Shown: positions 1,010 to 30,444, counted from the first letter of the stretch. The stretch is 64,000 nucleotides of DNA from Nitrospiria bacterium (GCA_036397255.1 DASWJH010000046.1:5020-69019), one strand, 5' to 3'. A program made the numbers and translations. Notes: generated by a model from the letters alone, not told the origin.

Positions 1010-1405
1010 ATGAAAAGTAATTCAATGATTAAAAAAGTTCAAAAAATAGCCGTGGACGTTTATAAGACTTTAGGGTCCGGGCACCCTGAAATCGTTTACG
1101 ATAAGGCAATGCAGGTTGGGTTTCGGCTTGAAAAAATAAAGTACGAGAGCCAAAAAGTAATTGAGTTGAAATATAAAGATCACTGTATCGGTGAGGCGTA
1201 TCCTGATCTTGTTATACATAATGGGCAAGAAAGGTTAGTGGTTGAGCTTAAAGCCGTAGGGGGTCAGATGGGTATTCCCGAGGAGCAACAACTCAAAAAT
1301 TATTTAAAAATTTTAAATTTTAAAGAGGGCCTTCTCATAAACTTTCAACAACCAGGAAAAAGGGACGGTAATACCGAAATTGAATTTAGGGAGGTCTTTA
1401 TTTAA
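1010..1405 (+). CDS. GxxExxY family protein (PD-(D/E)XK-like)
   Basis: The family signature is present: LGSGHPEIVY...AM...GFRLEK...Q..IELKYKDHCIGEAYPDLVI...ERLVVELKAV...QQLKNYLKILNFKEGLLINFQ. Confidence 0.8.
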   Translation: MKSNSMIKKVQKIAVDVYKTLGSGHPEIVYDKAMQVGFRLEKIKYESQKVIELKYKDHCIGEAYPDLVIHNGQERLVVELKAVGGQMGIPEEQQLKNYLKILNFKEGLLINFQQPGKRDGNTEIEFREVFI

Positions 1406-4064: not shown

Positions 4065-4141
4065 GCCCCCGTAGCTCAGCAGGATAGAGCAGCGGTTTCC
4101 TAAACCGAAGGTCGCGTGTTCAAATCACGCCGGGGGCACCA
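4065..4141 (+). tRNA. tRNA-Arg (anticodon CCT)
   Basis: Cloverleaf parsed by hand: acceptor stem GCCCCCG/CGGGGGC, D-arm GCTC-AGCAGGATA-GAGC, anticodon arm GCGGT-TTCCTAA-ACCGA (anticodon CCT), variable loop AGGTC, T-arm GCGTG-TTCAAAT-CACGC, discriminator A and an encoded CCA. Confidence 0.85.
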
Positions 4142-5077: not shown

Positions 5078-5764
5078 ATGGCTGTCCTGCAATTTTTAAA
5101 ACATCAACCGCTTTTTTGCTGGGTGAACCCTTTGAAGATTCTAACTCTTTTATTGGCAACCTTTTTTCTGTTTCAAGGATACGGTGTGGAGGGTTTTGCC
5201 CAAGGGACCGCGGATATCATGCACCGGGCACACGGCAAAAAACAGCAGGACCTTCTTATAAAAACGTTTGAGGATATATTGATTTCCGGAAGGGAAGGAG
5301 ATTGGGAAGCTGTAGAAAATTCCATCGCCCGAATCGATGACCGGGTAAAGAAATACGACAGAATATTCGGCACCCGTGTCAGAGATAAACTCGGACGGTC
5401 CCTGGCCGATAAAAATCAGGGAGAAATTCTGAAGTACCTTGCCCAAACCATATTCCTGGGGATTAAAGAGCAATTCAAACTCATTATGGATAGTGACCAG
5501 GAGGACTATCTCGATTCGAGGGCTCGATTGGATAGAGCAAAGGATTATTACCTTAAAATTCTATCCGGCAATATCAAAAGACGTGACCTTGATCGGCACG
5601 TGAAAATCGAAGGACATTTTCTGCTCGCACAGGCATCACTGGGGAATCCGGGTGTTTTTATCGATGTGCCGGTCATGGAAGGGGATATCCGCAGTTTTCA
5701 GCAAGCGGTTTCCGAAATTGAAACAGAAGTCATTCAGGTGTACACCTATTTCAACGATGACTAG
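5078..5764 (+). CDS. Hypothetical secreted or periplasmic helical protein
   Basis: Signal-peptide-like N-terminus (LKILTLLLATFFLFQGYGVEGFA). No recognisable motif. The true start is uncertain. It lies just upstream of the porin gene. Confidence 0.4.
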   Translation: MAVLQFLKHQPLFCWVNPLKILTLLLATFFLFQGYGVEGFAQGTADIMHRAHGKKQQDLLIKTFEDILISGREGDWEAVENSIARIDDRVKKYDRIFGTRVRDKLGRSLADKNQGEILKYLAQTIFLGIKEQFKLIMDSDQEDYLDSRARLDRAKDYYLKILSGNIKRRDLDRHVKIEGHFLLAQASLGNPGVFIDVPVMEGDIRSFQQAVSEIETEVIQVYTYFNDD

Positions 5765-5805
5765 GAAGGAAGACTTAAGATTTTAATAAACCTTCAGGAG
5801 GAGAA

Positions 5806-6936
5806 ATGAACCCCCGACGGTATATTGCGTCAGGCTTCGTCCTCATGTTTTTTCTGGGTATGGGTTTGCCGCAAATTACCCATGCCCAGGGACAGGATGG
5901 GGATTTCACATTCGAGGATGTTTTTTCCACCCGGAAGAAAAAGGAAAAGGTAACCTTCCATGGATATGCGGCCTTCCAGTTTTTTGACCGAGAAGTGCCA
6001 GGTCCCGGGGGGAACAATAGTTTTGATCAGCACATTTTTGAACCGTTTTTCGGTTATCAGATCAATGATCATGTTTTTGCCAAAATCATTATAGAGTTTG
6101 AGCATGCACCTGAAAGAACGGATGACAAGCAATATGCCGAAATTTTCATCGAACAAGCCGAAATCGACATTACACCATGGGAAGGGACAACATTCGCATT
6201 TGGAGCGGTGTTGGTTCCGTTTGGGTTAGAGAACTATTTCCATTCCCCATCGGATAATCGGTTGATCACACGTCCACCTTTGGTTAAAAGCGGCGCAAAC
6301 GGTAATTCTATTCTCAACAATACCTGGACCGATGTGGGGGTACAGATCATACAGGACATTCCAAAAACAGGGACTATGGATTTTTATGTTATTAATGGCA
6401 GTGCGGTACAAAACAAGGACAGTCGGGGAAGGGATACGGTTGGCTCCAATGCTAATTCAGGAAAATCTTTTGGGGCTGAAATTCAGGTCACCGAATTGAT
6501 TCCGGGACTGAATTTTGGTTTTTCTTACGTAACCGGTCCTCATGATACCAACAATAATTTGGAGTCTTATCGATTCGGTTTGCATGCCTTTCTCAAACTG
6601 GGATTTGCTTATTTGCAAGGGGAATATTTATTGGGGACAGATGAAGGATTAGGAACCGCCAGTTTTGATCGGGATGTCTCGGGATACTATGTTCTGCTTT
6701 CCCTGGTTCCCCCTCTCCCTGCGCTTGATAACCGGGTGGATTTTAATGTTCGTTATACGGATTGGACCGCGGATGACAATGCCAAAAATGATTTTTCGGA
6801 GATTGCGTTTGGTCCTCGTATCCAAATATATAAAAACACGTGGATCAAAGCAGAATATCAGATCAACAACGAAAATGGGAATAATGTGGAAATAGACAAT
6901 AATCAAATAGGGGCCCAACTGACAGTCCTATTTTAA
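5806..6936 (+). CDS. Outer-membrane beta-barrel porin (phosphate-selective porin O/P-like)
   Basis: Signal peptide ending ...ITHAQG. The sequence shows an alternating amphipathic beta-strand pattern and ends in a C-terminal Phe (LTVLF), which is typical of an OMP. Confidence 0.55.
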   Translation: MNPRRYIASGFVLMFFLGMGLPQITHAQGQDGDFTFEDVFSTRKKKEKVTFHGYAAFQFFDREVPGPGGNNSFDQHIFEPFFGYQINDHVFAKIIIEFEHAPERTDDKQYAEIFIEQAEIDITPWEGTTFAFGAVLVPFGLENYFHSPSDNRLITRPPLVKSGANGNSILNNTWTDVGVQIIQDIPKTGTMDFYVINGSAVQNKDSRGRDTVGSNANSGKSFGAEIQVTELIPGLNFGFSYVTGPHDTNNNLESYRFGLHAFLKLGFAYLQGEYLLGTDEGLGTASFDRDVSGYYVLLSLVPPLPALDNRVDFNVRYTDWTADDNAKNDFSEIAFGPRIQIYKNTWIKAEYQINNENGNNVEIDNNQIGAQLTVLF

Positions 6937-7010: not shown

Positions 7011-9731
7011 ATGGTTTTTTCTTCGATGGTCTCAAAGATTTCGAATCTCAGGAATAAACTACTGGCAGGTTTCCTTATGGTTTCCATTATTCCGATGTTG
7101 GTAATGATGTTGACCTACCTTTCTTTTTTGGAAAGAAGTTTAGAACATGAGGTAAACGATCGTTTAACCGCTGCTCGGACTGGTGTGGAGATAGAACTGA
7201 GAGAAAGAGAAGGTTTCCTATTGAATGAAATCGAAAGACATGTTTCCCAGCCGATATTAATAAGCACCATGACTCGAAACCAATTAGAATTTTTAGAAGG
7301 AATTTTAACTCATTTTTTACAGTTGTCACAAGCGGATTTGATTCATTTGTTTGATAAAAGCGGTAAACCCATCCTTGGTCTTCAAAAATTAAAAAACGAA
7401 AATTTGGAACCCTTTAAACCTTTACGGACTTCCCAAACAGAGCGGGTGAACTCCGTCTCTAATTTCTCGCCTTATTCCCAGGATCAAGCAGGAGAGGGTT
7501 TCATTTTTGGCCCTCCCTCAACCCCTTTGCAAACACCCCCAAGCATTCAATCGGAAATCATCCGAACTACCCAATTCAATCGGCTTTCCCCGGAAATCAT
7601 GGAAAAATTATCAAAAAACGGGGAAGCCATTATTCGAAACCAACATCCAGAGGGGATTCATATTTCGGTTTTTAAAATTTTTCAATTTTCCGGTCAAACA
7701 TTAGGAGTCCTTCAGGAGGGGATGTTACTGGATCAAAATTTTCTGGATAGTCTAAAAAAAAGGACGGGTCTTGAGGTTGCCCTGATCAATCCACAAGGAA
7801 ATGGAATTATATCCTCTTTTCATCCGGTAGACCATTTAAACCATCAGGAAAACCCAAAAAAAATTGCCGTGAAAAAAATTGGGGGAACAGGATATTTTTA
7901 TACCCTCCTGCCCATTGGACCGAAGGAAAGCCCGGTGAGGGTTGCCCTATTTGAATCAAAAAATGCCCTTACCGCAAGCAAAACCAAAGCAACAGGGTTT
8001 TTCTTTATAATATTTGGAATGATTACTGCTGTGGTAATGGGAGCAAGTTTTTTGTCCGCAAAAGCGATCACCCAGCAACAAAATCTGGCCGAAGAAGCCC
8101 TTGAAGCCAGCCGGGCAAGTTTTCGAAACGTGGTTGAAAAAAGCGGAGATGGAATTATTATCGTAGATATGGAACAGATTATTCGGTTTGTAAATCCATA
8201 CAGCAGGCTATTTTTTGAAAATAAAATGACTGTTTTCCCAGGGAAACCTTTTAATTTTCCTGTCGTTCCCAATGAACCCAAAGAAATTGAGATCATTCGA
8301 ATTTCAGGGGGGATAGGGGTGGGGGAAATGTTGACGGTTGAAACAGAATGGAATGGAAAGCCTGCCCATTTGATATCCATCAGGGATATTACCGATCGGA
8401 AAAAGGCAGAAGAGTTGATCGAGCATCAAGCCTACCATGATGCGTTAACCATGTTACCCAACCGTTTATTGTTTATTGATCGCTTGAACCAGGAATTGGC
8501 CCGGTGCGGATGGAAAAAACAGCCTGTGGGTGTCATATTTCTTGATCTGGACCAATTTAAACAAATCAATGATACCCTAGGACATACTATAGGAGATTTT
8601 CTGCTTCAAGCGGTTGCAAAACGGTTGGCGGGTTGCACGCGGGAGGGAGATACCATTGCCAGATTGGGGGGAGACGAATTCACGATTCTTCTTGCCGATC
8701 TTGCAACAACTCAAGACATTCCAAAAATTGCTTTGAAAATCCTTGAAATCTTTTTAAACCCATTTGAATTGAAGGACCACGAACTGTATATCACTTCGAG
8801 TATGGGGATCAGTATCTTTCCGAATGATGGGAGGGATTCAGAGACGTTGCTTAAAAATGCGGATACAGCCATGTACCGTGCAAAAGAAAACGGGAGAAAT
8901 AATTATCAATTTTACATTCCCGAAATGAACACTCGGGTTTCTGAAAGGCTTGCTTTGGAAAATGGACTCCGCCGTGCCCTGGAGAGAAATGAATTCATTC
9001 TTCATTACCAACCCCAGGTCAACCTCAGCACAGGGCAAATTGTTGGAATGGAAGCCCTCATAAGATGGAATCATCCGGAAAAGGGGTTAATCTCCCCCTA
9101 CAAATTTATACCCCTCGCCGAAGAAACAGGTCTAATTGTTCCCATAGGAGATTGGGTGATCCGAACCGCTTGTGCTGTGGCCAAGGCCATGCAATCGGTT
9201 GGAAATACGGGGATCAAGGTGGCTATTAATTTATCGGCGCGTCAGTTTTTACAAAGAGATCTTATTCAAAAAATTGATTCTGCCCTTAACAAATCCTTCT
9301 TGGATCCCAAATATTTAGAGCTGGAACTGACGGAAAGCATGATTCAAAATGCGGTTTCCACCCATTCAACGCTAAAGAAATTAAATAGTATGGGTATCCA
9401 AATTTCAATTGATGATTTTGGGACAGGATATTCTTCCCTGAGCTATTTAAGTCGATTTCCCATAAGTAAATTGAAGATTGATAAATCCTTTGTGCATGAT
9501 ATTACCACCAATCCGGATCACTCATCCATCGTTGCTGCCATTATCACATTGGCTCACAACCTAAACCTTAAAACAATTGCTGAAGGGGTTGAAACCCTTG
9601 ATCAAATGAACTATTTGAAATCAATCCAGTGTGACGAAATCCAAGGTTTTGTTTTTAGCCCCCCCTTGCCCCCCGATGAAATTATGGGTTTATTGTCCCA
9701 GAGAAGCCCCTTAAAAATTCTTCCAAGATAA
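7011..9731 (+). CDS. Membrane sensor c-di-GMP enzyme with PAS-GGDEF-EAL architecture
   Basis: N-terminal TM helix followed by a large extracytoplasmic/linker region and a second TM helix. A PAS-like segment is present (VVEKSGDGIIIVDMEQIIRFVNP). The GGDEF active site reads RLGGDEF with the canonical GHTIGD upstream. The EAL motif (EALIRW) and the DDFGTGYSS loop are both present. Confidence 0.85.
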   Translation: MVFSSMVSKISNLRNKLLAGFLMVSIIPMLVMMLTYLSFLERSLEHEVNDRLTAARTGVEIELREREGFLLNEIERHVSQPILISTMTRNQLEFLEGILTHFLQLSQADLIHLFDKSGKPILGLQKLKNENLEPFKPLRTSQTERVNSVSNFSPYSQDQAGEGFIFGPPSTPLQTPPSIQSEIIRTTQFNRLSPEIMEKLSKNGEAIIRNQHPEGIHISVFKIFQFSGQTLGVLQEGMLLDQNFLDSLKKRTGLEVALINPQGNGIISSFHPVDHLNHQENPKKIAVKKIGGTGYFYTLLPIGPKESPVRVALFESKNALTASKTKATGFFFIIFGMITAVVMGASFLSAKAITQQQNLAEEALEASRASFRNVVEKSGDGIIIVDMEQIIRFVNPYSRLFFENKMTVFPGKPFNFPVVPNEPKEIEIIRISGGIGVGEMLTVETEWNGKPAHLISIRDITDRKKAEELIEHQAYHDALTMLPNRLLFIDRLNQELARCGWKKQPVGVIFLDLDQFKQINDTLGHTIGDFLLQAVAKRLAGCTREGDTIARLGGDEFTILLADLATTQDIPKIALKILEIFLNPFELKDHELYITSSMGISIFPNDGRDSETLLKNADTAMYRAKENGRNNYQFYIPEMNTRVSERLALENGLRRALERNEFILHYQPQVNLSTGQIVGMEALIRWNHPEKGLISPYKFIPLAEETGLIVPIGDWVIRTACAVAKAMQSVGNTGIKVAINLSARQFLQRDLIQKIDSALNKSFLDPKYLELELTESMIQNAVSTHSTLKKLNSMGIQISIDDFGTGYSSLSYLSRFPISKLKIDKSFVHDITTNPDHSSIVAAIITLAHNLNLKTIAEGVETLDQMNYLKSIQCDEIQGFVFSPPLPPDEIMGLLSQRSPLKILPR

Positions 9732-10195
9732 ATACAGAAACTTATTTATTTTCTTTTATTCTAGGAGATTCATTTTATCTAAAACCGAATAATTTACTTC
9801 AATATTGGCTGGAAAACAGCTTGTTAACTTTAAAGTTTTAAAATTCCTTATTGGTGTGAAAAGGTTCAATAGATTTATGCTTTTCTTCCTTCAAGAAAAC
9901 TCAAATCTTCGCAGGTCTCTAAGGCCATCTAAAATTAATAGTTTTAACATTCCCATGGATTTTTTGGGTATCAATTACAAACCTAGGGGCAATAAATTTT
10001 TTTAATTTTTTGGTTATTATCTTCGTGGGACTACGGTTTTTTAAAGCAAAAATCTATCCCTTTATTCAGGGACAATAAAAAGGAATTTTGATTTTTTTAA
10101 TTATTGACTTTTGAACAAAACCTTGTCTTATTAATAAACTATTATCTTTATGCCTATTTTTTATTTCTTCGGAACCTGAGTGTGGACAAGTATAA

Positions 10196-11566: not shown

Positions 11567-12436
11567 TCAGAAAACGCGATTTCTCCCCGATTGCTTTGCC
11601 TTATAGAGTGCCTGGTCTGCTTTGTCTACGATATTCGTCACAGTGTTGCCATCCTCTGGAAATACCGCAATTCCGATACTGACCGTTAAGGAAATTTCTT
11701 CATCTTTTTTAATTCTTATTTTTTTTGAAGCAACGGCTCTGCGGATTTTTTCTCCGGTTGAGAGGGCGTTTAATCGTGAGGTCTCGGGTAAAAGAAAAGC
11801 AAATTCTTCTCCCCCGTACCGAAACACCTGATCCACCCCTCTTACTTTGGATTGAATTAATTTGCTCACAGCAATTAAAACTTTATCCCCCGAGGGATGC
11901 CCATGGGTGTCATTGACTAATTTGAAATGGTCAATGTCGAGCATTAAAAGGGAAAAACAATGGCCAAAACGCTGAGAGCGGCTTAATTCCCCTTTTATTT
12001 GATGGGTAAATTCCTTTTTATTTAATAAGCCGGTCAACCCATCATGAATGGAAAGATTTTCATAATACTGCAATGGAAAAAGCAAATCACGTATGGAGAC
12101 CACACCCGCGATCTCCCCTTTTTTCTCCACCACCAGATGGCGGATTTTTTTGCATTCCATGAGCTCTTCCGCTTCTCCGATGGTTTTGTTTTCATGGATA
12201 GAGATGACTGGGGCTGACATGACTTCTTTGACACTTACCTTTTGTGGATTTAAACCCTCCACCACAACCTTATGCAATATATCAGTCCCGGTTAATATTC
12301 CAATGATTTCCTCCCCCTGACGGATTAAGAGGCATCCCACACCTGATTCTTTCATAAAATGAACCGCAGTCCATACGGTTGAATCGAATTGAATTGATAA
12401 GGGATTTTCCCTCATGACGTTCTCAACGGAAATCAT
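11567..12436 (-). CDS. CBS-pair-GGDEF diguanylate cyclase
   Basis: Two CBS motifs at the N-terminus. The GGDEF domain has RYGGEEF and DTHGHPSGD, i.e. the canonical Asp position rather than the Ser found in Hypr-type enzymes. Confidence 0.8.
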   Translation of the reverse strand: MISVENVMRENPLSIQFDSTVWTAVHFMKESGVGCLLIRQGEEIIGILTGTDILHKVVVEGLNPQKVSVKEVMSAPVISIHENKTIGEAEELMECKKIRHLVVEKKGEIAGVVSIRDLLFPLQYYENLSIHDGLTGLLNKKEFTHQIKGELSRSQRFGHCFSLLMLDIDHFKLVNDTHGHPSGDKVLIAVSKLIQSKVRGVDQVFRYGGEEFAFLLPETSRLNALSTGEKIRRAVASKKIRIKKDEEISLTVSIGIAVFPEDGNTVTNIVDKADQALYKAKQSGRNRVF

Positions 12437-12472: not shown

Positions 12473-13105
12473 TTATGGCACAACAATGGTGTCCCCGGGG
12501 TGAAGGATGAAATCTCCCAGGGGGCCTTTTCCAGAGACCACATTATCATATTTCAAAGGGATTCTGATTTGTTGCTCTTTTCCTATTCCATCTTTATTGG
12601 GACGAATCACCTGGATTTGGTTTTTCGATGCGAAGGGGGTAAATCCCCCAGCCAGGGAAACACCTTGAAGAACAGTTGCGTATGATTTGACTTGGTATTT
12701 TCCGGGGCGGGTGACCTCACCCAATACATAGAAAAAGTAGCTGTTGACCTCCTTCACCTGAACGGAAACATTCGGAGTCGTCATAAATTCGTTGAGACGA
12801 TATGCAATCCGGTCCGCCAGTTTATCTGCAGTTAAATCAGCGGCAAGGACATCTCCAACCAAGGGCATTGAAATGTAACCATCAGGGCGAATAATGACTT
12901 CGCCAGAAAGATCGGCATTTTTCCAAACGGTAACCTCTAAAACATCCTCAGGCCCAAGAAAAAACTCTACTGGAGGGATGTACTGAACCGGAAACGTATT
13001 GGGTGTAGAGCAGCCCCACAGGGCCAGAAGCGGAAAGAGGAGGCAGCACAATAATGAAATAACTCTCCTGCGTTGTTTCAACATATGTATTTGATTGTAT
13101 TTCAA
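12473..13105 (-). CDS. Wza-like polysaccharide export outer-membrane lipoprotein (Poly_export + SLBB)
   Basis: Lipobox LLALWGCS. The Wza-family core is present: IGPEDVLEVTVW...GEVIIRPDGYISMPLVGDVLAAD-LTADKLADRIAYRLNEF...VSVQVKEVNSYFFYVLGEVTRPGKY. Confidence 0.75.
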   Translation of the reverse strand: MKYNQIHMLKQRRRVISLLCCLLFPLLALWGCSTPNTFPVQYIPPVEFFLGPEDVLEVTVWKNADLSGEVIIRPDGYISMPLVGDVLAADLTADKLADRIAYRLNEFMTTPNVSVQVKEVNSYFFYVLGEVTRPGKYQVKSYATVLQGVSLAGGFTPFASKNQIQVIRPNKDGIGKEQQIRIPLKYDNVVSGKGPLGDFILHPGDTIVVP

Positions 13106-13418: not shown

Positions 13419-13892
13419 ATGGCCCGGATGAAAAAATGGGAACGGTTTAGAATATCTTTGTTTTTATTGCCGATGATCGTTTTTTATCACGGTTTCGGGG
13501 AGGGTTCAGATTGGAAAATCTTTGATCAGGGAGAAACGTTTTTCTACTATTATTATGAAGATACCATTAGAAAAACCGCTAATGGCATTGTGAGTCTGTG
13601 GATCAGGACCGTCCCTCACCAGAAAGTCGAATTTGAGAAGGTGTTAGAGGAAAGACAAAAGGCAGGGATTCCCCTTCATTCCGAGATTCAAGACTATGGA
13701 TATAGCCTTATTTTTATGAAACTCCATTGTATAGAGAAAAAGGCCAAAATTATTCAGGAAAAGATTTATAATAAAAAGGGCTTTCTTTTAAAATCTTATT
13801 TAGATACAACTGGATGGAAACCCGTCTCCCACCTCGCTTTTGAAGGGGCCCTTTCCGGCCAAGTGTGTCCTGCCAATATTGTCCAAAAATAG
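13419..13892 (+). CDS. Hypothetical secreted protein
   Basis: 157 aa with an N-terminal hydrophobic signal-like segment. No recognisable motif. Confidence 0.4.
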   Translation: MARMKKWERFRISLFLLPMIVFYHGFGEGSDWKIFDQGETFFYYYYEDTIRKTANGIVSLWIRTVPHQKVEFEKVLEERQKAGIPLHSEIQDYGYSLIFMKLHCIEKKAKIIQEKIYNKKGFLLKSYLDTTGWKPVSHLAFEGALSGQVCPANIVQK

Positions 13893-14461: not shown

Positions 14462-17400
14462 TCAAATGTTCCCCACCAAAGGACGCATATGGAAAATTTT
14501 CCTCTTTTCCCATTTTTGAAATAAAAACCTTAAACCCATTAGGAAAGGAACAATAAACATTGCGATATCGACATCTCGGTTTTGGTTGTGGCGGGCATCT
14601 TTCACAAAACCGCATCCTCCTACTGCACTCCCCATATCAGAAATGGCTGAGCCTCCCGATTGGGAGGATACAGTTGGTGGCGGAGTGTTGGACCCCCCTG
14701 AACCCGGCTGAGGGGTGCCTTGGACGGTTACTGGGTTCGTTTGATAATTTCCTTGTCCGTCATAGGAAAAAGCAGAGTAATAATATGTGGTTCCATTTTG
14801 CAGCCCAGTGTGGATAGTACTCTGAACCTCATTGGGAACGCCCGTAAAATCTCCAAGTAATTGCCCATCGTTTACATTTTCAGGAAACCCTCCAGTTGTT
14901 TTGAATACAATTCGGGTCCCGATGTAATCGGGATCTGAAGGGCTCGTCCAGGTTAAGAGAATCTCCTGGTCATTTTCAAAGGCGGAAAATTTTTTGATTT
15001 GGCCGGGGGGAATTTGATCCGGTGCTTTTGGGGTTTTAAAAATTTGATCTAGCGATACCGAAAGATTTCCAGCAGTGTCTAAACTTCTGACCCGAAAATG
15101 GTAGGGAAAATCAGGGGTTAATCCATTGATTGTCATTGAATGGTCCAACATCATGGTAGCGTTAAAAGGGGTTGTGTTTTCGTAGTTTGTGGTTTGCCCA
15201 TATTCGATTTGTGAGGTTGCGGCCTCATTGGTAACCCAAGTGATCAGTATGGTGGTGTTGCTTAAAGAAGTTGTGTTAATGTTTGAAATAACCGGGGGAG
15301 TTTGATCCGGTAAAGAAAGGGTGTTAAAGGTTCCGTCATTCGATACAGAAAGGTTCCCCATGGCATCCATTGTCCGGATTCGAAAATGATAGGTTTTTAA
15401 AGAAGATAAACCAGAAAGGGTGACCTGATGACTCGTTTTTAGGGAAGAATCTAGATTTGATATAAATCCATAAGCGGAGGTTAAACCGAATTCAACTTGG
15501 GAAGTTGCGCCTTCATTAGTAGACCAGTTCACTATGGCACCGGAGCCTGTAATATTGCTGGTGTTGATTCCGGAAATGGATGGAGGAATGGTATCAGGGG
15601 GGGGAGAAGTTGTAAAGGTTTTGTCTGCTGACACCGCTTGGTTTCCAGCGGCATCCATGCTCCGTACCCGGTAATGATAGGTGGTTGATGAGGTCAACCC
15701 GGATAGAGATCTGCTGTGGCTGGTGACTAACGTGGAATTCAAGGCAGAGGTGGACCCATAAGCGGTGGTGGTGCCATACTCCACCTGTGAGGTAGCGCCT
15801 TCACCGGTATTCCAGGTAATGGTGGCGCTGGTGCTGGTGACGGACCCCTCGTTGATGGATGAAATAACAGGGGGGGTGGTATCGGGAAGGGGAGAAGTTG
15901 TAAAGGTTTTGTCTGCTGACACCGTTTGGTTTCCAGCGGCATCCATGCTCCGTACCCGGTAATGATAGGTGGTTGATGAAGTCAACCCGGATAGAGATCT
16001 GCTGTGGCTGGTGACTAATGTGGAATTCAAGGCAGAGGTGGACCCATAGGCGGTGGTGGTGCCATACTCCACCTGTGAGGTAGCGCCTTCATCGGTATTC
16101 CAGGTAATGGTGGCGCTGGTGCTGGTGACGGACCCCTCGTTGATGGATGAAATAACAGGGGGGGTGGTATCGGGAAGAGGAGAAGTTGTAAAGGTATTGT
16201 CTCCTGACACCGCTTGGTTTCCAGCGGCATCTATGCTCCGCACCCGGTAATGATAGGTGTTTGATGAGGTCAACCCGGATAGAGATCTGCTGTGGCTGGT
16301 CACCGGTGTGGAATTCAAGGCAGAGGTGGACCCATAAGACATGGTGGTGCCGTATTCCACTTGGGAGGTCGCCCCTTCATTGGTTGACCATGTGATGACC
16401 GAGGCCGAACTTGAAATATTGCTAGCAGTTAATCCGGAAATAACAGGGGGGGTGGTGTCGGGAGCGGGGAGTGTGGTGAAGGTATTATCCGCTGAGGTGG
16501 CCAGATTACCGGCTGCATCGGAACTTATGACCCGGTAATGATAGGTGGTTGATGAGGTCAACCCGGATAGAGATCTGCTGTGGCTGGTCACCAGCGTGGA
16601 ATTCAGTGCCGAGGTGGACCCATAGGACATGGTGGTGCCGTATTCCACCTGGGAGGTAGCGCCTTCATCCGTTTTCCAGGAAATGGAAACGCTGGTGCTG
16701 GTGACGGAACCTTCTGCAATGGATGAAATAACGGGAGGAGTGATATCGGGAGCGGCAAGTGTGGAAAAGGTATTATCGGCAGAGGTGGCCAGATTTCCTG
16801 CCCCATCTCTGCTCAATACACGGTAATGATAGGTGGTTGATGAGGTCAGTCCGGATAAGGCTCTGCTGTGGCTGGTCACCGGTGTGGAATTCAGTGCGGA
16901 GGTGGACCCATAGGCCGTTGTGGTACCATATTCCACCTGGGATGTTGCGTCTTCATCCGTATTCCAGGTTATTGTAGCGTTGGTACTGGTGACGGAACCC
17001 TCTGTGATAGATGAAATGACAGGAGGGGTGGTATCCGGGGGGGAAGTCGTCGTAAATGTGTTATCCCCAGAATTGCCAAGGTTTCCTACATTATCTCGGC
17101 TTAAAACTCTAAAATGGTAAACGGTTGAAGGCAGTAGTCCACTTAAATCTTGGCTATGGGAAGTAACCAGCGTATTGATTAGGCTGGTTGTAGAACCATA
17201 GGCGGAACTGGTCCCATATTCAATTTGAGTACTGGAAGGTTCGTTTGTTACCCATGTAATGGTTGCCCCATTATTGCTGATACTAAGGGAGGAAATATTT
17301 GAAATGGCGGGTGGGGTAGTATCCGGCGGATTTAATGTGATGAAGGTATTATCTCCCGAAATGGCCATATTTCCTGCTACATCCTGACTGACAACCCGGT

Positions 17401-17929
17401 AATGATAGGTGGTAGAGGGGGTAAGGTTACTCAGGGATCGGCTATGGTTTGTGGTTAGGTTTGAATTGATCGGTGTTGATGAACCGTAATTTGTGGTTAC
17501 CCCGTAATCCACCTGGGATGTTGCCCCTTCATTAGTCGCCCAAACAATGTCCACGCTAGAGCTGCCCATATTGACGGCAGATATCGATGAAATGGCAGGT
17601 GGAGTTATATCCCCGAAACTTTTATTCACCTCGATTGAATAAGGACTTTCATTACCTCCAAAATCATAAGCGGTGACCGCAAAAAAGTAGGTTCCCAAAC
17701 CCAATCCAGTTACGGTGTAAGAGGTCTGGTTCCCAACATCCATAGGGGGACTGTAGGTTCGAGAGGCGGTCCCAACGTAAACTTTATATCCTGCCAAATC
17801 GGGTTCGGTATTGGCATCCCAGCTGAGAAAGGCGTCTCCTGCATAACCCAAGCGGGAAAGTGCTAAAAACACAAATATGAATAAGGTGAGTTTAAAAAAA
17901 CAGGATAATGAGCTTGAAAATTTCATCAT
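14462..17929 (-). CDS. Giant secreted FN3-repeat surface protein (adhesin-like, about 11 tandem fibronectin type III-like modules)
   Basis: Signal peptide MMKFSSSLSCFFKLTLFIFVFLALSRLGYA. Roughly 96-aa modules recur, beginning DTTPPVISSI..ATITWNTDEGATSQVEYGTT.AYGSTSALNSTLVTSHSRSLSGLTSSTTYHYRV. The C-terminus has a G/S/P-rich linker, a GGCG motif, then a hydrophobic helix and a basic tail (IAMFIVPFLMGLRFLFQKWEKRK), which resembles a sorting signal or membrane anchor. Confidence 0.85.
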   Translation of the reverse strand: MMKFSSSLSCFFKLTLFIFVFLALSRLGYAGDAFLSWDANTEPDLAGYKVYVGTASRTYSPPMDVGNQTSYTVTGLGLGTYFFAVTAYDFGGNESPYSIEVNKSFGDITPPAISSISAVNMGSSSVDIVWATNEGATSQVDYGVTTNYGSSTPINSNLTTNHSRSLSNLTPSTTYHYRVVSQDVAGNMAISGDNTFITLNPPDTTPPAISNISSLSISNNGATITWVTNEPSSTQIEYGTSSAYGSTTSLINTLVTSHSQDLSGLLPSTVYHFRVLSRDNVGNLGNSGDNTFTTTSPPDTTPPVISSITEGSVTSTNATITWNTDEDATSQVEYGTTTAYGSTSALNSTPVTSHSRALSGLTSSTTYHYRVLSRDGAGNLATSADNTFSTLAAPDITPPVISSIAEGSVTSTSVSISWKTDEGATSQVEYGTTMSYGSTSALNSTLVTSHSRSLSGLTSSTTYHYRVISSDAAGNLATSADNTFTTLPAPDTTPPVISGLTASNISSSASVITWSTNEGATSQVEYGTTMSYGSTSALNSTPVTSHSRSLSGLTSSNTYHYRVRSIDAAGNQAVSGDNTFTTSPLPDTTPPVISSINEGSVTSTSATITWNTDEGATSQVEYGTTTAYGSTSALNSTLVTSHSRSLSGLTSSTTYHYRVRSMDAAGNQTVSADKTFTTSPLPDTTPPVISSINEGSVTSTSATITWNTGEGATSQVEYGTTTAYGSTSALNSTLVTSHSRSLSGLTSSTTYHYRVRSMDAAGNQAVSADKTFTTSPPPDTIPPSISGINTSNITGSGAIVNWSTNEGATSQVEFGLTSAYGFISNLDSSLKTSHQVTLSGLSSLKTYHFRIRTMDAMGNLSVSNDGTFNTLSLPDQTPPVISNINTTSLSNTTILITWVTNEAATSQIEYGQTTNYENTTPFNATMMLDHSMTINGLTPDFPYHFRVRSLDTAGNLSVSLDQIFKTPKAPDQIPPGQIKKFSAFENDQEILLTWTSPSDPDYIGTRIVFKTTGGFPENVNDGQLLGDFTGVPNEVQSTIHTGLQNGTTYYYSAFSYDGQGNYQTNPVTVQGTPQPGSGGSNTPPPTVSSQSGGSAISDMGSAVGGCGFVKDARHNQNRDVDIAMFIVPFLMGLRFLFQKWEKRKIFHMRPLVGNI
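15450..17000. repeat. Near-identical 288-bp tandem DNA repeats inside the adhesin CDS
   Basis: Shadow ORFs 15739..15942 and 16027..16230 are about 95% identical and sit 288 bp apart. The encoded FN3 modules 5-7 are nearly identical at the protein level. Confidence 0.8.
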
Positions 17930-17948: not shown

Positions 17949-18068
17949 AAAAAAAAACCGCCAAAGACTTTTCCCCTTTGGCGGCTCGGCGGGCATTTGA
18001 TCCCTGAGGGATCATTAGCCCCGGTGCTCTGCGTCACCACCTTTCGATGGATTTGCTCTGAGCAAAGG
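17949..18068 (-). promoter_or_regulatory. c-di-GMP-I (GEMM-I)-type riboswitch, copy 1 (proximal to the adhesin start), with an intrinsic terminator
   Basis: Minus-strand RNA: CCUUUGCUCAGAGCAAAUCCAUCGAAAGGUGGUGACGCAGAGCACCGGGGCUAAUGAUCCCUCAGGGAUCAAAUGCCCGCCGAGCCGCCAAAGGggaaaagucUUUGGCGG-U9. It matches the GEMM-I core remembered from V. cholerae Vc2 (..GGGCAAACC AUUC GAAA GAGU GGGACGCAAAGCC UCCGGCCUAA..): GCAAA(c/u)C, a 4/5-bp P2 capped by GAAA, the J2/3 GACGCAGAGC, and a P3 with CUAA. The terminator is a perfect 9-bp stem plus U9, and its 5' arm CAAAGG could alternatively form P1 with the 5' CCUUUG. Confidence 0.7.
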
Positions 18069-18192: not shown

Positions 18193-18312
18193 AAAAAAAA
18201 CCGCCAAGGATAGTTTTCCTTTGGTGGCTCGGCGGGCATTTGATCCCTGAGAGATCATTAGCCCCGGTGCTCTGCGTCTCCACCTTTCGATGGGTTTGCT
18301 CTGAGCAAAGGG
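18193..18312 (-). promoter_or_regulatory. c-di-GMP-I (GEMM-I)-type riboswitch, copy 2, with an intrinsic terminator
   Basis: Minus-strand RNA: CCUUUGCUCAGAGCAAACCCAUCGAAAGGUGGAGACGCAGAGCACCGGGGCUAAUGAUCUCUCAGGGAUCAAAUGCCCGCCGAGCCACCAAAGGaaaacuauCCUUGGCGG-U8. The core is identical to copy 3. The terminator stem has one mismatch and one bulge. Confidence 0.7.
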
Positions 18313-18391: not shown

Positions 18392-18507
18392 AAAAAAGCC
18401 ACCAAAAAGAATCCTTTGGCGGCTCGGCGGGCATTTGATCCCTGAGAGATCATTAGCCCCGGTGCTCTGCGTCTCCACCTTTCGATGGGTTTGCTCTGAG
18501 CAAAGGG
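18392..18507 (-). promoter_or_regulatory. c-di-GMP-I (GEMM-I)-type riboswitch, copy 3 (promoter-proximal), with an intrinsic terminator
   Basis: Same aptamer core as copy 2. The terminator is GCCGCCAAAGGauucUUUUUGGUGGC followed by a U-rich run (9 bp including one G.U pair). Confidence 0.7.
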
Positions 18508-29553: not shown

Positions 29554-30444
29554 ATGGTTGTTTTGGATCGAAAATCCTTATATTCGTTTTTTTTAATATT
29601 AATGGTTTTTGGGCATTTTTTTGAGGATTCGGTTAGGGGAGAAACCCTTAAAATTCATTTGACAGCATTGGATAAAACCGTAAAGGTTGCAAAAGGAGAA
29701 TCTTATAAAGCCTGGACTTTTGAGGGGTTTATTCCCGGGCCAGTGATCCGGGTCAAAGAGGGGGATGAGATTGATTTTATTTTTGAAAATAAGGGTTCTA
29801 TCGCCCATTCAATTGTTTTACATGGAGTGATAACGCCTCCCGATCAAAATTTTAGAAGTGTGGGGCCAAAGGAATCGGTTTCCTTTACCTGGAAAGCCGA
29901 ATTTCCGGGCGTATTTTTATACCATTGTGGAACCTCACCCACATTCCAACACCTTGCCAATGGGATGTATGGTGCTCTGATTGTAGATCCCACAGAGCCC
30001 AGGGAAAATGCAAGAGAAATTGTTTTAGTACAAAGTGAATTTTATTCCTCCCCCCGGAATGTTCACGGAATGCTGAATGGCGAAGCCCGGTTTGTCGTTT
30101 TTAATGGGTATATGAATAAATATGTAGAAACCCCGATAGAAGCGCAACCCGGGGAGCTTATACGGTGGTATGTTCTAAATGCAGGCCCAAACTTTTTCTC
30201 TTCCTTTAATTTGGTGGGGGGGATGTTTTTAAAGGTTTTTGAGAATGGGAACCCCAAACACATAAAAGAAAATGTTCCCCTTTGGACCCTTCCCCCAGGA
30301 GGGGGAGCCATTTTTGAAACACGTTTAAAAGAGGAGGGTGTCTATTCTTTCAAAACCCACGCTTTGGCTGATTCATATCGGGGGGGGATAGGTTTTATTC
30401 GAATTTCAAAAGAAGCAGGTCCCCCTGGGGCCCTTATGCCCTGA
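29554..30444 (+). CDS. NirK-family two-domain cupredoxin protein (copper nitrite reductase-like); function uncertain
   Basis: The alignment to A. faecalis NirK (from memory) is clear. [23 protein letters not shown] matches [30 protein letters not shown] matches [31 protein letters not shown] matches [35 protein letters not shown] matches YAYLNHNLIEA. T1Cu ligands (H, C, H, M) and T2Cu ligands (H, H, H) are conserved, but catalytic Asp98 is replaced by Leu and His255 by Asn. The N-terminus is a TM helix or signal peptide. Confidence 0.6.
   Translation: [296 protein letters not shown]

Follow-up and report, generated by a model that had tools for sequence, protein, structure and literature searches.

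The stretch of DNA analysed here (the window, 64,000 nucleotides from a Nitrospiria bacterium, GCA_036397255.1 DASWJH010000046.1:5020-69019) carries a gene for a large fibronectin type III (FN3) repeat protein, which is preceded by three aptamers of the GEMM-I (cyclic di-GMP-I, c-di-GMP-I) riboswitch class and ends in an unusual C-terminal tail. The protein is a secreted FN3 rod, and its central array evolves as single units are gained and lost. Its tail, judged by conservation among relatives, represents a real, Nitrospirota-specific, helix-containing domain that is missed by current models. Positions are counted from the first nucleotide of the window, and contigs or loci and proteins that were compared with it carry L and P numbers, respectively.

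Gene and domain architecture

The open reading frame (ORF) has exactly the boundaries given in an earlier sequence-only reading of this DNA, and the roughly 11 FN3-like modules proposed there were borne out by Pfam, with 11 stretches matching PF00041 (fn3, 146.8 bits, cutoff 25) and 9 stretches matching PF16656 (Pur_ac_phosph_N, 233.7 bits, cutoff 30). The N-terminus with its signal peptide is kept among relatives, according to sequence comparison. The source annotation as 'phosphodiesterase/alkaline phosphatase D-like' was rejected; only the N-terminal FN3-like domains match in Pfam, and the annotation is misleading because a Metallophos/PhoD catalytic domain is absent. The only related NCBIfam match was to the FN3 part of the MXAN_2561 family of MYXO-CTERM-anchored proteins, where the conserved C-terminal FN3 module aligned with profile positions 180-263 of 304 of NF045522 at 88.6 bits, below the cutoff of 150. 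The architecture, together with the riboswitch and exopolysaccharide (EPS) context described below, suggests a role as an adhesin.

Table 1. Features of the FN3 gene, its leader and two neighbouring genes (window positions; aa, amino acids).
Feature	Position	Strand	Evidence or remark
FN3 repeat protein, coding sequence, 1155 aa	14462..17929	minus	NCBI HEX9757257.1; metagenome-assembled genome, Nitrospiria bacterium
Signal peptide, aa 1-30 (...SRLGYA/GDA)	17840..17929	minus	read from sequence; putative cleavage site
Conserved N-terminal module, aa 31-105 (GDAFLSWDANTEPDLAGYKVYVGT...)	17615..17839	minus	DUF4998/fn3; common to all family members
Nine 96-aa (288-bp) FN3 modules, purple-acid-phosphatase-N type, aa 106-969	15023..17614	minus	
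Lineage-specific expansion, units 3-7	15599..17038	minus	all five correspond to one module of ortholog P0174
Two near-identical units (6 and 7)	15599..16174	minus	one absent from contigs L004 and L026
Conserved C-terminal FN3 module, aa 970-1065	14735..15022	minus	like the module preceding the anchor in the MXAN_2561 family
G/S/P/T-rich low-complexity linker, aa 1066-1100	14630..14734	minus	read from sequence
Conserved C-terminal tail, aa 1101-1155	14465..14629	minus	Gly-Cys, 15-aa polar spacer, helix, KWEKRK, 11 more residues
GEMM-I (c-di-GMP-I, RF01051) aptamer 1 of 3	18415..18505	minus	Rfam 51.9 bits; CAGA/GCAAAC
Intrinsic terminator, unit 1 (13-bp stem and T-run)	18396..18425	minus	terminator scan; fold -17.3 kcal/mol; 5' arm overlaps P3/P1 3' strands
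GEMM-I aptamer 2 of 3	18220..18310	minus	Rfam 51.3 bits
Terminator-like hairpin, unit 2 (imperfect stem) and T8	18198..18230	minus	fold -13.4 kcal/mol, three-unit alignment; unflagged by terminator scan
GEMM-I aptamer 3 of 3	17977..18067	minus	Rfam 52.2 bits; ends 48 nt before ATG
Intrinsic terminator, unit 3 (13-bp stem and T9)	17955..17987	minus	terminator scan; fold -19.5 kcal/mol
Small Wza-like polysaccharide export protein (Poly_export)	12473-13105	minus	best match TIGR03027 pepcterm_export, 123.8 bits, below cutoff 180
CBS-GGDEF diguanylate cyclase	11567-12436	minus	canonical GHxxGD

The repeat array and its variation

Tandem Repeats Finder reported a period of 288 bp with 5.0 copies and 82% matches between 15589 and 17035 (score 1713, far above chance), which confirms the period noticed earlier. 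When the protein was divided into 96-aa units, one near-identical pair stood out. Unit 6 (aa 586-681, 15887-16174) and unit 7 (aa 682-777, 15599-15886) differ at 7 of 288 bases, corresponding to 98% DNA and 97% protein identity, with three synonymous and three non-synonymous codon changes. Units 3-5 (aa 298-585) are 70-82% identical to this pair and among themselves, units 1, 2, 8 and 9 are about 50-60% identical, and the first and last modules are divergent. The sequence-only reading had described modules 5-7 as about 95% alike; near-identical 288-bp units do exist, but there are only two of them. The longest exact stretch common to units 6 and 7 is 85 bp, so that 150-bp reads or k-mers above 85 distinguish the units.

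Comparison with related genomes, which the earlier reading had proposed as a check, revealed differences in repeat number. The closest ortholog, P0174 (764 aa, 65% identity), carries a tail of the same subtype and has one module against five in the present protein: units 3-7 share 67-77% identity with P0174 module 3, as compared to 51-59% with the other P0174 modules and 70-98% among themselves. On two closed Candidatus (Ca.) Manganitrophus chromosomes, the encoded proteins P0156 (CP114555.1) and P0157 (CP114561.1) share 95.8% identity yet are set apart by two separate 96-aa indels. Family members have between 0 and about 13 central modules. Repeat-number change in this FN3 family is real. The central array would expand and contract by unequal recombination or slippage between 288-bp units. 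Because unit changes are in frame, they alter the length of the protein and do not switch its expression on or off. The claim of a size-variable protein thus stands for strains and species, while at the level of this population it is only plausible; copy-number variation there is likely but unproven.

Two shorter forms bear on the population. A 709-aa fragment in the same 90% cluster, on contig L004, equals the window over 12.4 kb minus exactly one 288-bp unit, with the crossover inside a 36-bp identical run at repeat offsets 251-286 (a chimeric 6/7 junction). The closest separate cluster is P0155 (1059 aa, full length, contig L026, different sample), which is the present protein minus unit 6 with one further substitution; its junction of unit 5 to unit 7 lies inside an 85-bp identical run. 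A metagenome scan with the whole protein yielded no near-identical strains, only distant relatives (at most 62% identity in the best segment).

It counts against population-level variation that these one-unit-shorter contigs could be assembly artefacts, in which case the short forms would represent collapse of a gene that is fixed at 11 modules in this population. Assemblers struggle here: contig L004 begins inside the array and L005 at a near-identical unit, as the earlier warning of assembly collapse had anticipated, and the array is known to be difficult for short-read assembly. The identical protein sequence is recorded on 12 metagenome contigs, and the three that were compared as DNA match the window at 100%. 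However, the units share at most 85 identical bases, and final k-mers of 99-127 cannot join unit 5 to unit 7 without real reads. Each short form has lost one in-frame unit, the junctions differ, and one also has a single-nucleotide difference. One-module indels of the same kind moreover separate the two closed chromosomes. In view of this, we regard collapse as possible but lean against it.

The C-terminal tail

The G/S/P-rich linker is followed by ...SAVGGCGFVKDARHNQNRDVDIAMFIVPFLMGLRFLFQKWEKRKIFHMRPLVGNI, without a frameshift, and the composition given in the sequence-only reading (linker, GGCG, hydrophobic helix and KRK) is exactly as claimed. The codon of Cys1106 lies at 14612-14614, and the hydrophobic helix comprises aa 1122-1137 (14519-14566). 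None of the NCBIfam or Pfam sorting-domain models matched this tail at E<=10 with queries of 54 aa, 84 aa or the whole protein; those without a match include MYXO-CTERM (TIGR03901), GlyGly-CTERM, LPXTG, the C-terminal domain of the type IX secretion system (T9SS) and PGF/PEF-CTERM. The sortase- or exosortase-type anchor suggested earlier, which had been made to depend on a hit of this kind, is not confirmed in that form.

The same ending does occur elsewhere. It was first recognised by eye in the C-termini of hits from an exhaustive search, two proteins of which shared it. A full-length search then added about 35 tail-bearing proteins, and a local hidden Markov model of the tail found more than 50 distinct proteins. 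Apart from P0073, whose architecture comprises a choice-of-anchor Q domain and beta-propeller repeats, all are members of this FN3 family. The common architecture consists of the same N-terminal module, a variable number of FN3 units, the same C-terminal module and the tail. The consensus of 30 aligned tails is GGGC[AG]M[IV]xPxxGxxxGPxx[AS]A[DE], followed by about 15 hydrophobic residues and RK. Gly-Cys is invariant (30/30), and the alignment shows stricter conservation for the extracytoplasmic motif than for the helix. The tail of the present protein aligns in register, together with that of P0174, as a divergent subtype. Matches of the 30 family tails to NCBIfam and Pfam models are scattered and below threshold: WGxxGxxG-CTERM and JDVT-CTERM in 4/30 each, MYXO-CTERM in 3/30 (best E=0.0029), GlyGly-CTERM and LPXTG in 1/30 each, and others singly, with Synerg-CTERM also weakly matched.

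When the back-translated motif was searched for in 185,579 species genomes, 20 loci were returned, 17 of them from Nitrospirota/Nitrospiria/Manganitrophaceae. In all 17 the motif is followed by a transmembrane helix and a basic cluster, whereas the three other loci (Bacteroidota, Clostridia) are taken as chance matches because a helix is missing. On these comparisons the FN3 family is restricted to Manganitrophaceae-type Nitrospirota. None of the 79 more distant FN3 loci from the metagenome scan has the tail, and no second protein with a similar tail was found within the window. Other searches were less informative. A homology search by the last 186 aa had no hits at all and missed even the cluster of the query itself, the word index being seemingly poor for short or low-complexity queries. 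The 30-tail alignment as a query returned only three short fragments, and in an exhaustive phmmer search with module 10 and the tail the FN3 module dominated and no match reached into the tail.

In homologous FN3 arrays from other phyla the same end position holds T9SS-like C-terminal domains, peptidoglycan-binding domains and similar modules, which marks this position as an anchoring slot. Two relatives carry the tail internally, without a stop codon: in L023 (2247-4835, minus strand) and L024 (4512-6902, plus strand) the reading frame passes from the tail through a basic loop and another hydrophobic segment, which resembles a signal peptide, to an extracytoplasmic enzyme domain that is purple-acid-phosphatase-like in L023 and glycosidase-like in L024. 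These are either real fusions or cases of a lost stop codon. The internal position fits a helix with the N-terminus outside and the C-terminus inside, and we infer this topology for the tail in general. Since the tail is conserved, lineage-restricted and contains an invariant Gly-Cys, it is not accidental; the best reading is that it serves in sorting or anchoring, in an uncatalogued form.

The riboswitch leader

The three GEMM-I aptamers, which were absent from the sequence-only reading, share the strand of the gene, lie 48-576 nt before its ATG and score above the Rfam gathering score of 35 for RF01051. The three riboswitch units are 88% identical. The sequence GAGCCGCCAAAGG, which makes up the 5' arm of the terminator, includes the 3' strands of both P3 and P1; helix P1 can form with the conserved 5' CCUUUG. 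Since the P1/P3 3' strand doubles as the terminator 5' arm, ligand binding should block termination, making the units predicted ON switches. Transcription would cross a leader of about 600 nt with three complete GEMM-I riboswitches in series, and such an arrangement would give a steep, threshold-like, more digital response to a cyclic dinucleotide. A putative sigma-70 promoter seen by eye (TTGACA-N17-TAATTT at about 18575-18547) was not supported by the promoter scan and was rejected; by-eye inspection found no sigma-54 promoter.

Riboswitches of this kind precede family members at most related loci. The aptamer-plus-terminator design is present in L019, L020, L025, L027 and L107, with two aptamers in L024, L108 and L109 and three in L026.

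Position 20 in the numbering of the Vc2 aptamer separates recognition of c-di-GMP from that of cyclic GMP-AMP (cGAMP) or bispecific recognition, and an A at this position is the signature of cGAMP-selective or bispecific GEMM-Ib aptamers (PMC6140456). All three aptamers of the window have A at the G20-equivalent position (CAGA/GCAAA; window 18057, 18300 and 18495), where the model column is G, and so do aptamers of the same type in L019, L020, L024, L025, L027 and L107-L109. The A20-type aptamers read GACGCAGAGC, as compared to the consensus GACGCAAAGC. They thus lack the G20 that contacts G-alpha of c-di-GMP in c-di-GMP-selective Vc2-type aptamers. Because position 20 is A, the predicted ligand is c-di-GMP and/or 3',3'-cGAMP. 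A genome with cGAMP-selective GEMM-Ib aptamers would be expected to encode a cGAMP synthase (a Hypr GGDEF protein or DncV). Both GGDEF proteins encoded in the window have the canonical Asp (GHxxGD), which indicates that they are not of the Hypr type.

In leaders of relatives a G20-type aptamer (AGGGCAAAC) and an A20-type aptamer occur in tandem (L108 9646-9952, L109 9615-9858; the L107 site is at 9809-9903). The G20-type aptamer of L108 scored as the c-di-GMP-I-GGC variant RF03167. Such G20 and A20 tandems may act as a two-ligand gate.

More A20-type aptamers lie directly downstream of FN3 genes, in L107 (12544-12628), L109 (12527-12683) and L012 (7092-7173). Those of L107 and L109 precede genes for unrelated secreted proteins, a 366-aa hypothetical protein and a pectate-lyase/NosD-like beta-helix protein, respectively. 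These positions point to a small regulon of envelope or matrix proteins under riboswitch control. Both downstream proteins (L107 12848-13948, L109 12726-14156) end in PPxNL[QR]VQ, as if a stop codon had truncated an FN3 module after its first strand. The fused enzymes of L023 and L024 end similarly (DTTPPA..).

Genomic neighbourhood

The flanking genes of the window show no synteny with 17 related loci, and the genes downstream of the FN3 genes in L107-L109 include none common to the window or other loci. In the window, the export protein and diguanylate cyclase genes are located downstream of the FN3 gene and provide context only, as read from gene positions. Between them and the FN3 gene a 157-aa ORF with an N-terminal hydrophobic segment (13419-13892, plus strand) is convergent with the FN3 gene. 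It was called in all contigs examined and belongs to no Pfam or NCBIfam family. Its candidacy as counterpart of the gene downstream of P0174 was dropped, the two being unrelated. Further away (5078-6936 and 7011-9731, both plus strand), a large GGDEF-EAL protein comes after two ORFs, a hypothetical one of 228 aa and a porin-like one (weak Porin_O_P match), so that with the CBS-GGDEF gene (11567-12436) the region is rich in cyclic-di-GMP turnover genes.

Among the remaining genes, a 296-aa ORF at 29554-30444 (plus strand) with the multicopper oxidase domains Cu-oxidase_3 and Cu-oxidase_2 is possibly of interest, as the lineage is related to Mn(II) oxidisers. The window also holds a tRNA gene (4065-4138, plus strand, 66.6 bits) and a small ORF of the PD-(D/E)XK nuclease family (1010-1405, plus strand).

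In relatives, paralogs in Ca. M. noduliformans (L107), L109, L017 and L022 are divergent from PrsK. Where the flanks of PrsK-linked loci are visible, a sigma-54 response regulator, true PEP-CTERM proteins and XrtA-type EPS genes adjoin; the regulator is PrsR above the curated cutoff in L107 and is recognised by Pfam domains only in L109. Directly upstream of the family member in L006 and L023 are genes for a histidine kinase and a sigma-54 response regulator, neighbours that recur among the related loci. The FN3 gene of the window itself is not in a PrsK/XrtA-type locus.

Comparison with known systems

Four known systems resemble parts of this locus. The MYXO-CTERM signals and the JDVT-, Synerg- and CGP-CTERM signals are Cys-containing and tripartite, and they are processed by myxosortases of the CPBP/Rce1 type (Haft 2023, bioRxiv 10.1101/2023.06.07.544157; PMC11980579). 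Genomes with MYXO-CTERM have the signal on numerous unrelated proteins, together with a gene for a cognate myxosortase (MrtX, MrtC or MrtP). Like MYXO-CTERM, the present tail has a Gly-rich motif with an invariant Cys, a hydrophobic helix and a basic cluster, and the secreted, repeat-rich diderm protein that carries it has a low-complexity linker in front of it. The preceding FN3 module, moreover, resembles that of the MXAN_2561 family. The differences are considerable. In the MYXO-, Synerg-, CGP-, PEP- and GlyGly-CTERM signals the motif abuts the helix, and the MYXO-CTERM helix contains no charged residues or Pro (Haft 2023, bioRxiv 10.1101/2023.06.07.544157). Here, Cys and helix are separated by a conserved spacer of 15-20 residues (M[IV]xP..GPxxAAD), which the known signals lack; Pro or Arg can occur within the helix, and the basic cluster is mixed in K and R and often not terminal. 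The hosts are Nitrospirota rather than Myxococcota, Synergistota or Thermococci, the signal is found on essentially one protein family as compared to dozens of proteins, and no Mrt-type protease was identified among the scanned ORFs of the window.

PEP-CTERM/XrtA systems are similar in that a C-terminal helix and basic cluster occur on a secreted protein linked to exopolysaccharide, and the loci of the relatives' paralogs hold components of such a system. Unlike there, the PEP motif is missing here and the model does not match.

The leader has a precedent in Bc3-5 of Bacillus thuringiensis, where ligand binding prevents termination (ON), as was experimentally characterised (PMC4759541). Both have three complete, very similar GEMM-I aptamer and terminator units in one leader, with the terminator overlapping P1/P3, and the predicted ON direction and more digital response here correspond to that system. 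In contrast to Bc3-5, the host is a Gram-negative nitrospirote and all three aptamers have A at the G20-equivalent position. Tandem cyclic-di-GMP riboswitches are often found upstream of surface-anchored proteins, while c-di-GMP-I triplets are rare, with 12 in a 2022 survey (PMC9481103).

The array itself is comparable to those of size-variable Ig-like or FN3 repeat adhesins, in which one-domain DNA repeats are in frame, the youngest copies are nearly identical and the number varies between strains or species. It differs in that the modules are of the purple-acid-phosphatase-N type and adhesive activity is suggested by architecture.

Possible roles of the tail

In view of the above, three explanations for the tail can be considered. 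The one that we prefer, and to which we give an even chance, combines all features of the locus: a Sec-exported FN3 rod with a recombining array, gated by riboswitches, is held by the tail helix and then matured at Gly-Cys. The rod-like protein would be exported by Sec via its signal peptide. The tail would initially act as a stop-transfer helix, so that the N-terminus is external and the basic residues are cytoplasmic. The Gly-Gly-Cys, about 15-20 residues outside the membrane, could then be the site of maturation by cleavage and/or attachment of a lipid or other group. Such maturation would detach the rod from its inner-membrane helix, so that it could be displayed in the envelope or in the EPS matrix, in analogy to Cys-containing tripartite signals such as MYXO-CTERM, although with a different motif and a long spacer. 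The three parts of this scheme carry different weight. N-out/C-in insertion and a matrix or surface role are suggested by the sequence features described above, and maturation at the invariant Gly-Cys, freeing the rod from the inner membrane, is proposed most tentatively.

Several observations weigh against this scheme. No known sorting-domain model fits the tail, and its Cys is 15-20 residues away from the helix, unlike the abutting motif of known -CTERM signals. In the present protein the tail is moreover a divergent subtype without the GP and AAD motifs and with Pro and Arg within the helix. No CPBP/Rce1-like protein, exosortase, rhomboid or sortase was found among the window ORFs scanned with Pfam, a set that leaves out about ten ORFs of at least 110 aa, and no sorting enzyme was found adjoining family members in the loci of relatives. 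Under the strict motif the tail occurs in one or two copies per genome, and with the exception of P0073 it is on one protein family, whereas classical sorting signals tag many unrelated proteins. About a quarter of the family members carry 25-60 residues beyond the basic cluster, like an ordinary cytoplasmic tail. For the leader, both the ligand and the switching direction are no more than predicted.

The main rival explanation, which several of these points favour, is that the tail is a permanent, uncleaved type-I membrane anchor. The rod would then be periplasmic and tethered to the inner membrane, and the Gly-Cys/Pro/Gly-Pro residues would form a structural or interaction motif next to the membrane, such as a disulfide bond with a partner. 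The lack of a sorting model and of a nearby sorting enzyme, the restriction to one protein family, the long polar spacer between Cys and helix and the cytoplasmic extensions of many members all agree with such an anchor, as does the helix of L023 and L024, which acts as an internal transmembrane segment of the fused protein. However, the length of the rod, about 3 to 15 FN3 modules depending on the paralog or ortholog, is hard to fit in a periplasm of fixed width, and control by riboswitches and EPS loci suggests a role in the matrix or at the surface, beyond the outer membrane. The stricter conservation of the extracytoplasmic motif as compared to the helix also counts against it. We consider a permanent anchor rather unlikely. 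The third option, in which the tail is a divergent PEP-CTERM-type signal of an EPS/floc system and is cut by the exosortase XrtA or a paralog, is less likely still, and we think it very improbable. It is attractive in view of the loci in which family members adjoin PrsK, above the curated cutoff in L017, L022 and L107 and by Pfam domains only in L109, together with PrsR, true PEP-CTERM proteins and XrtA-type EPS genes. TIGR03027 is also the best match of the Poly_export protein of the window, and the G/L-rich helix with its R/K cluster resembles that of PEP-CTERM. Yet the tails contain no PEP motif, TIGR02595/PF07589 matched 0/30 of them at E<=10, and the true PEP-CTERM tails encoded in the same loci of relatives (VPEPxxLLLLGSG...) are of a clearly different sequence class. 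For the window, the match of the export protein is below the cutoff, and no exosortase gene was seen.

Maturation at Gly-Cys thus remains the preferred explanation, and it can be extended. The tail could be an undescribed dedicated sorting signal of Manganitrophaceae-type Nitrospirota, the fifth Cys-containing tripartite one, with the A20 aptamers sensing 3',3'-cGAMP and the G20 and A20 tandems acting as a two-signal gate. That all of this holds together seems unlikely to us.

Implications

Each element of the locus has precedents, and the whole is more interesting than another FN3 adhesin would be. C-terminal sorting signals define the placement of large surface proteins in diderm bacteria, and each newly recognised signal led to a new sorting enzyme: sortase, exosortase, rhombosortase and myxosortase. 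The tail described here is a concrete target for phylogenetic profiling, since it is conserved, confined to one lineage, carries an invariant Cys and is missed by every current model. To our knowledge, this lineage includes the only cultured Mn(II)-oxidising chemolithoautotroph. The riboswitches link the FN3 family to cyclic-dinucleotide signalling, and the A at position 20 raises the question whether Nitrospirota use cGAMP. If they do, cGAMP/GEMM-Ib signalling, so far tied to extracellular electron transfer in Geobacter, would extend to Mn(II)-oxidising Nitrospirota.

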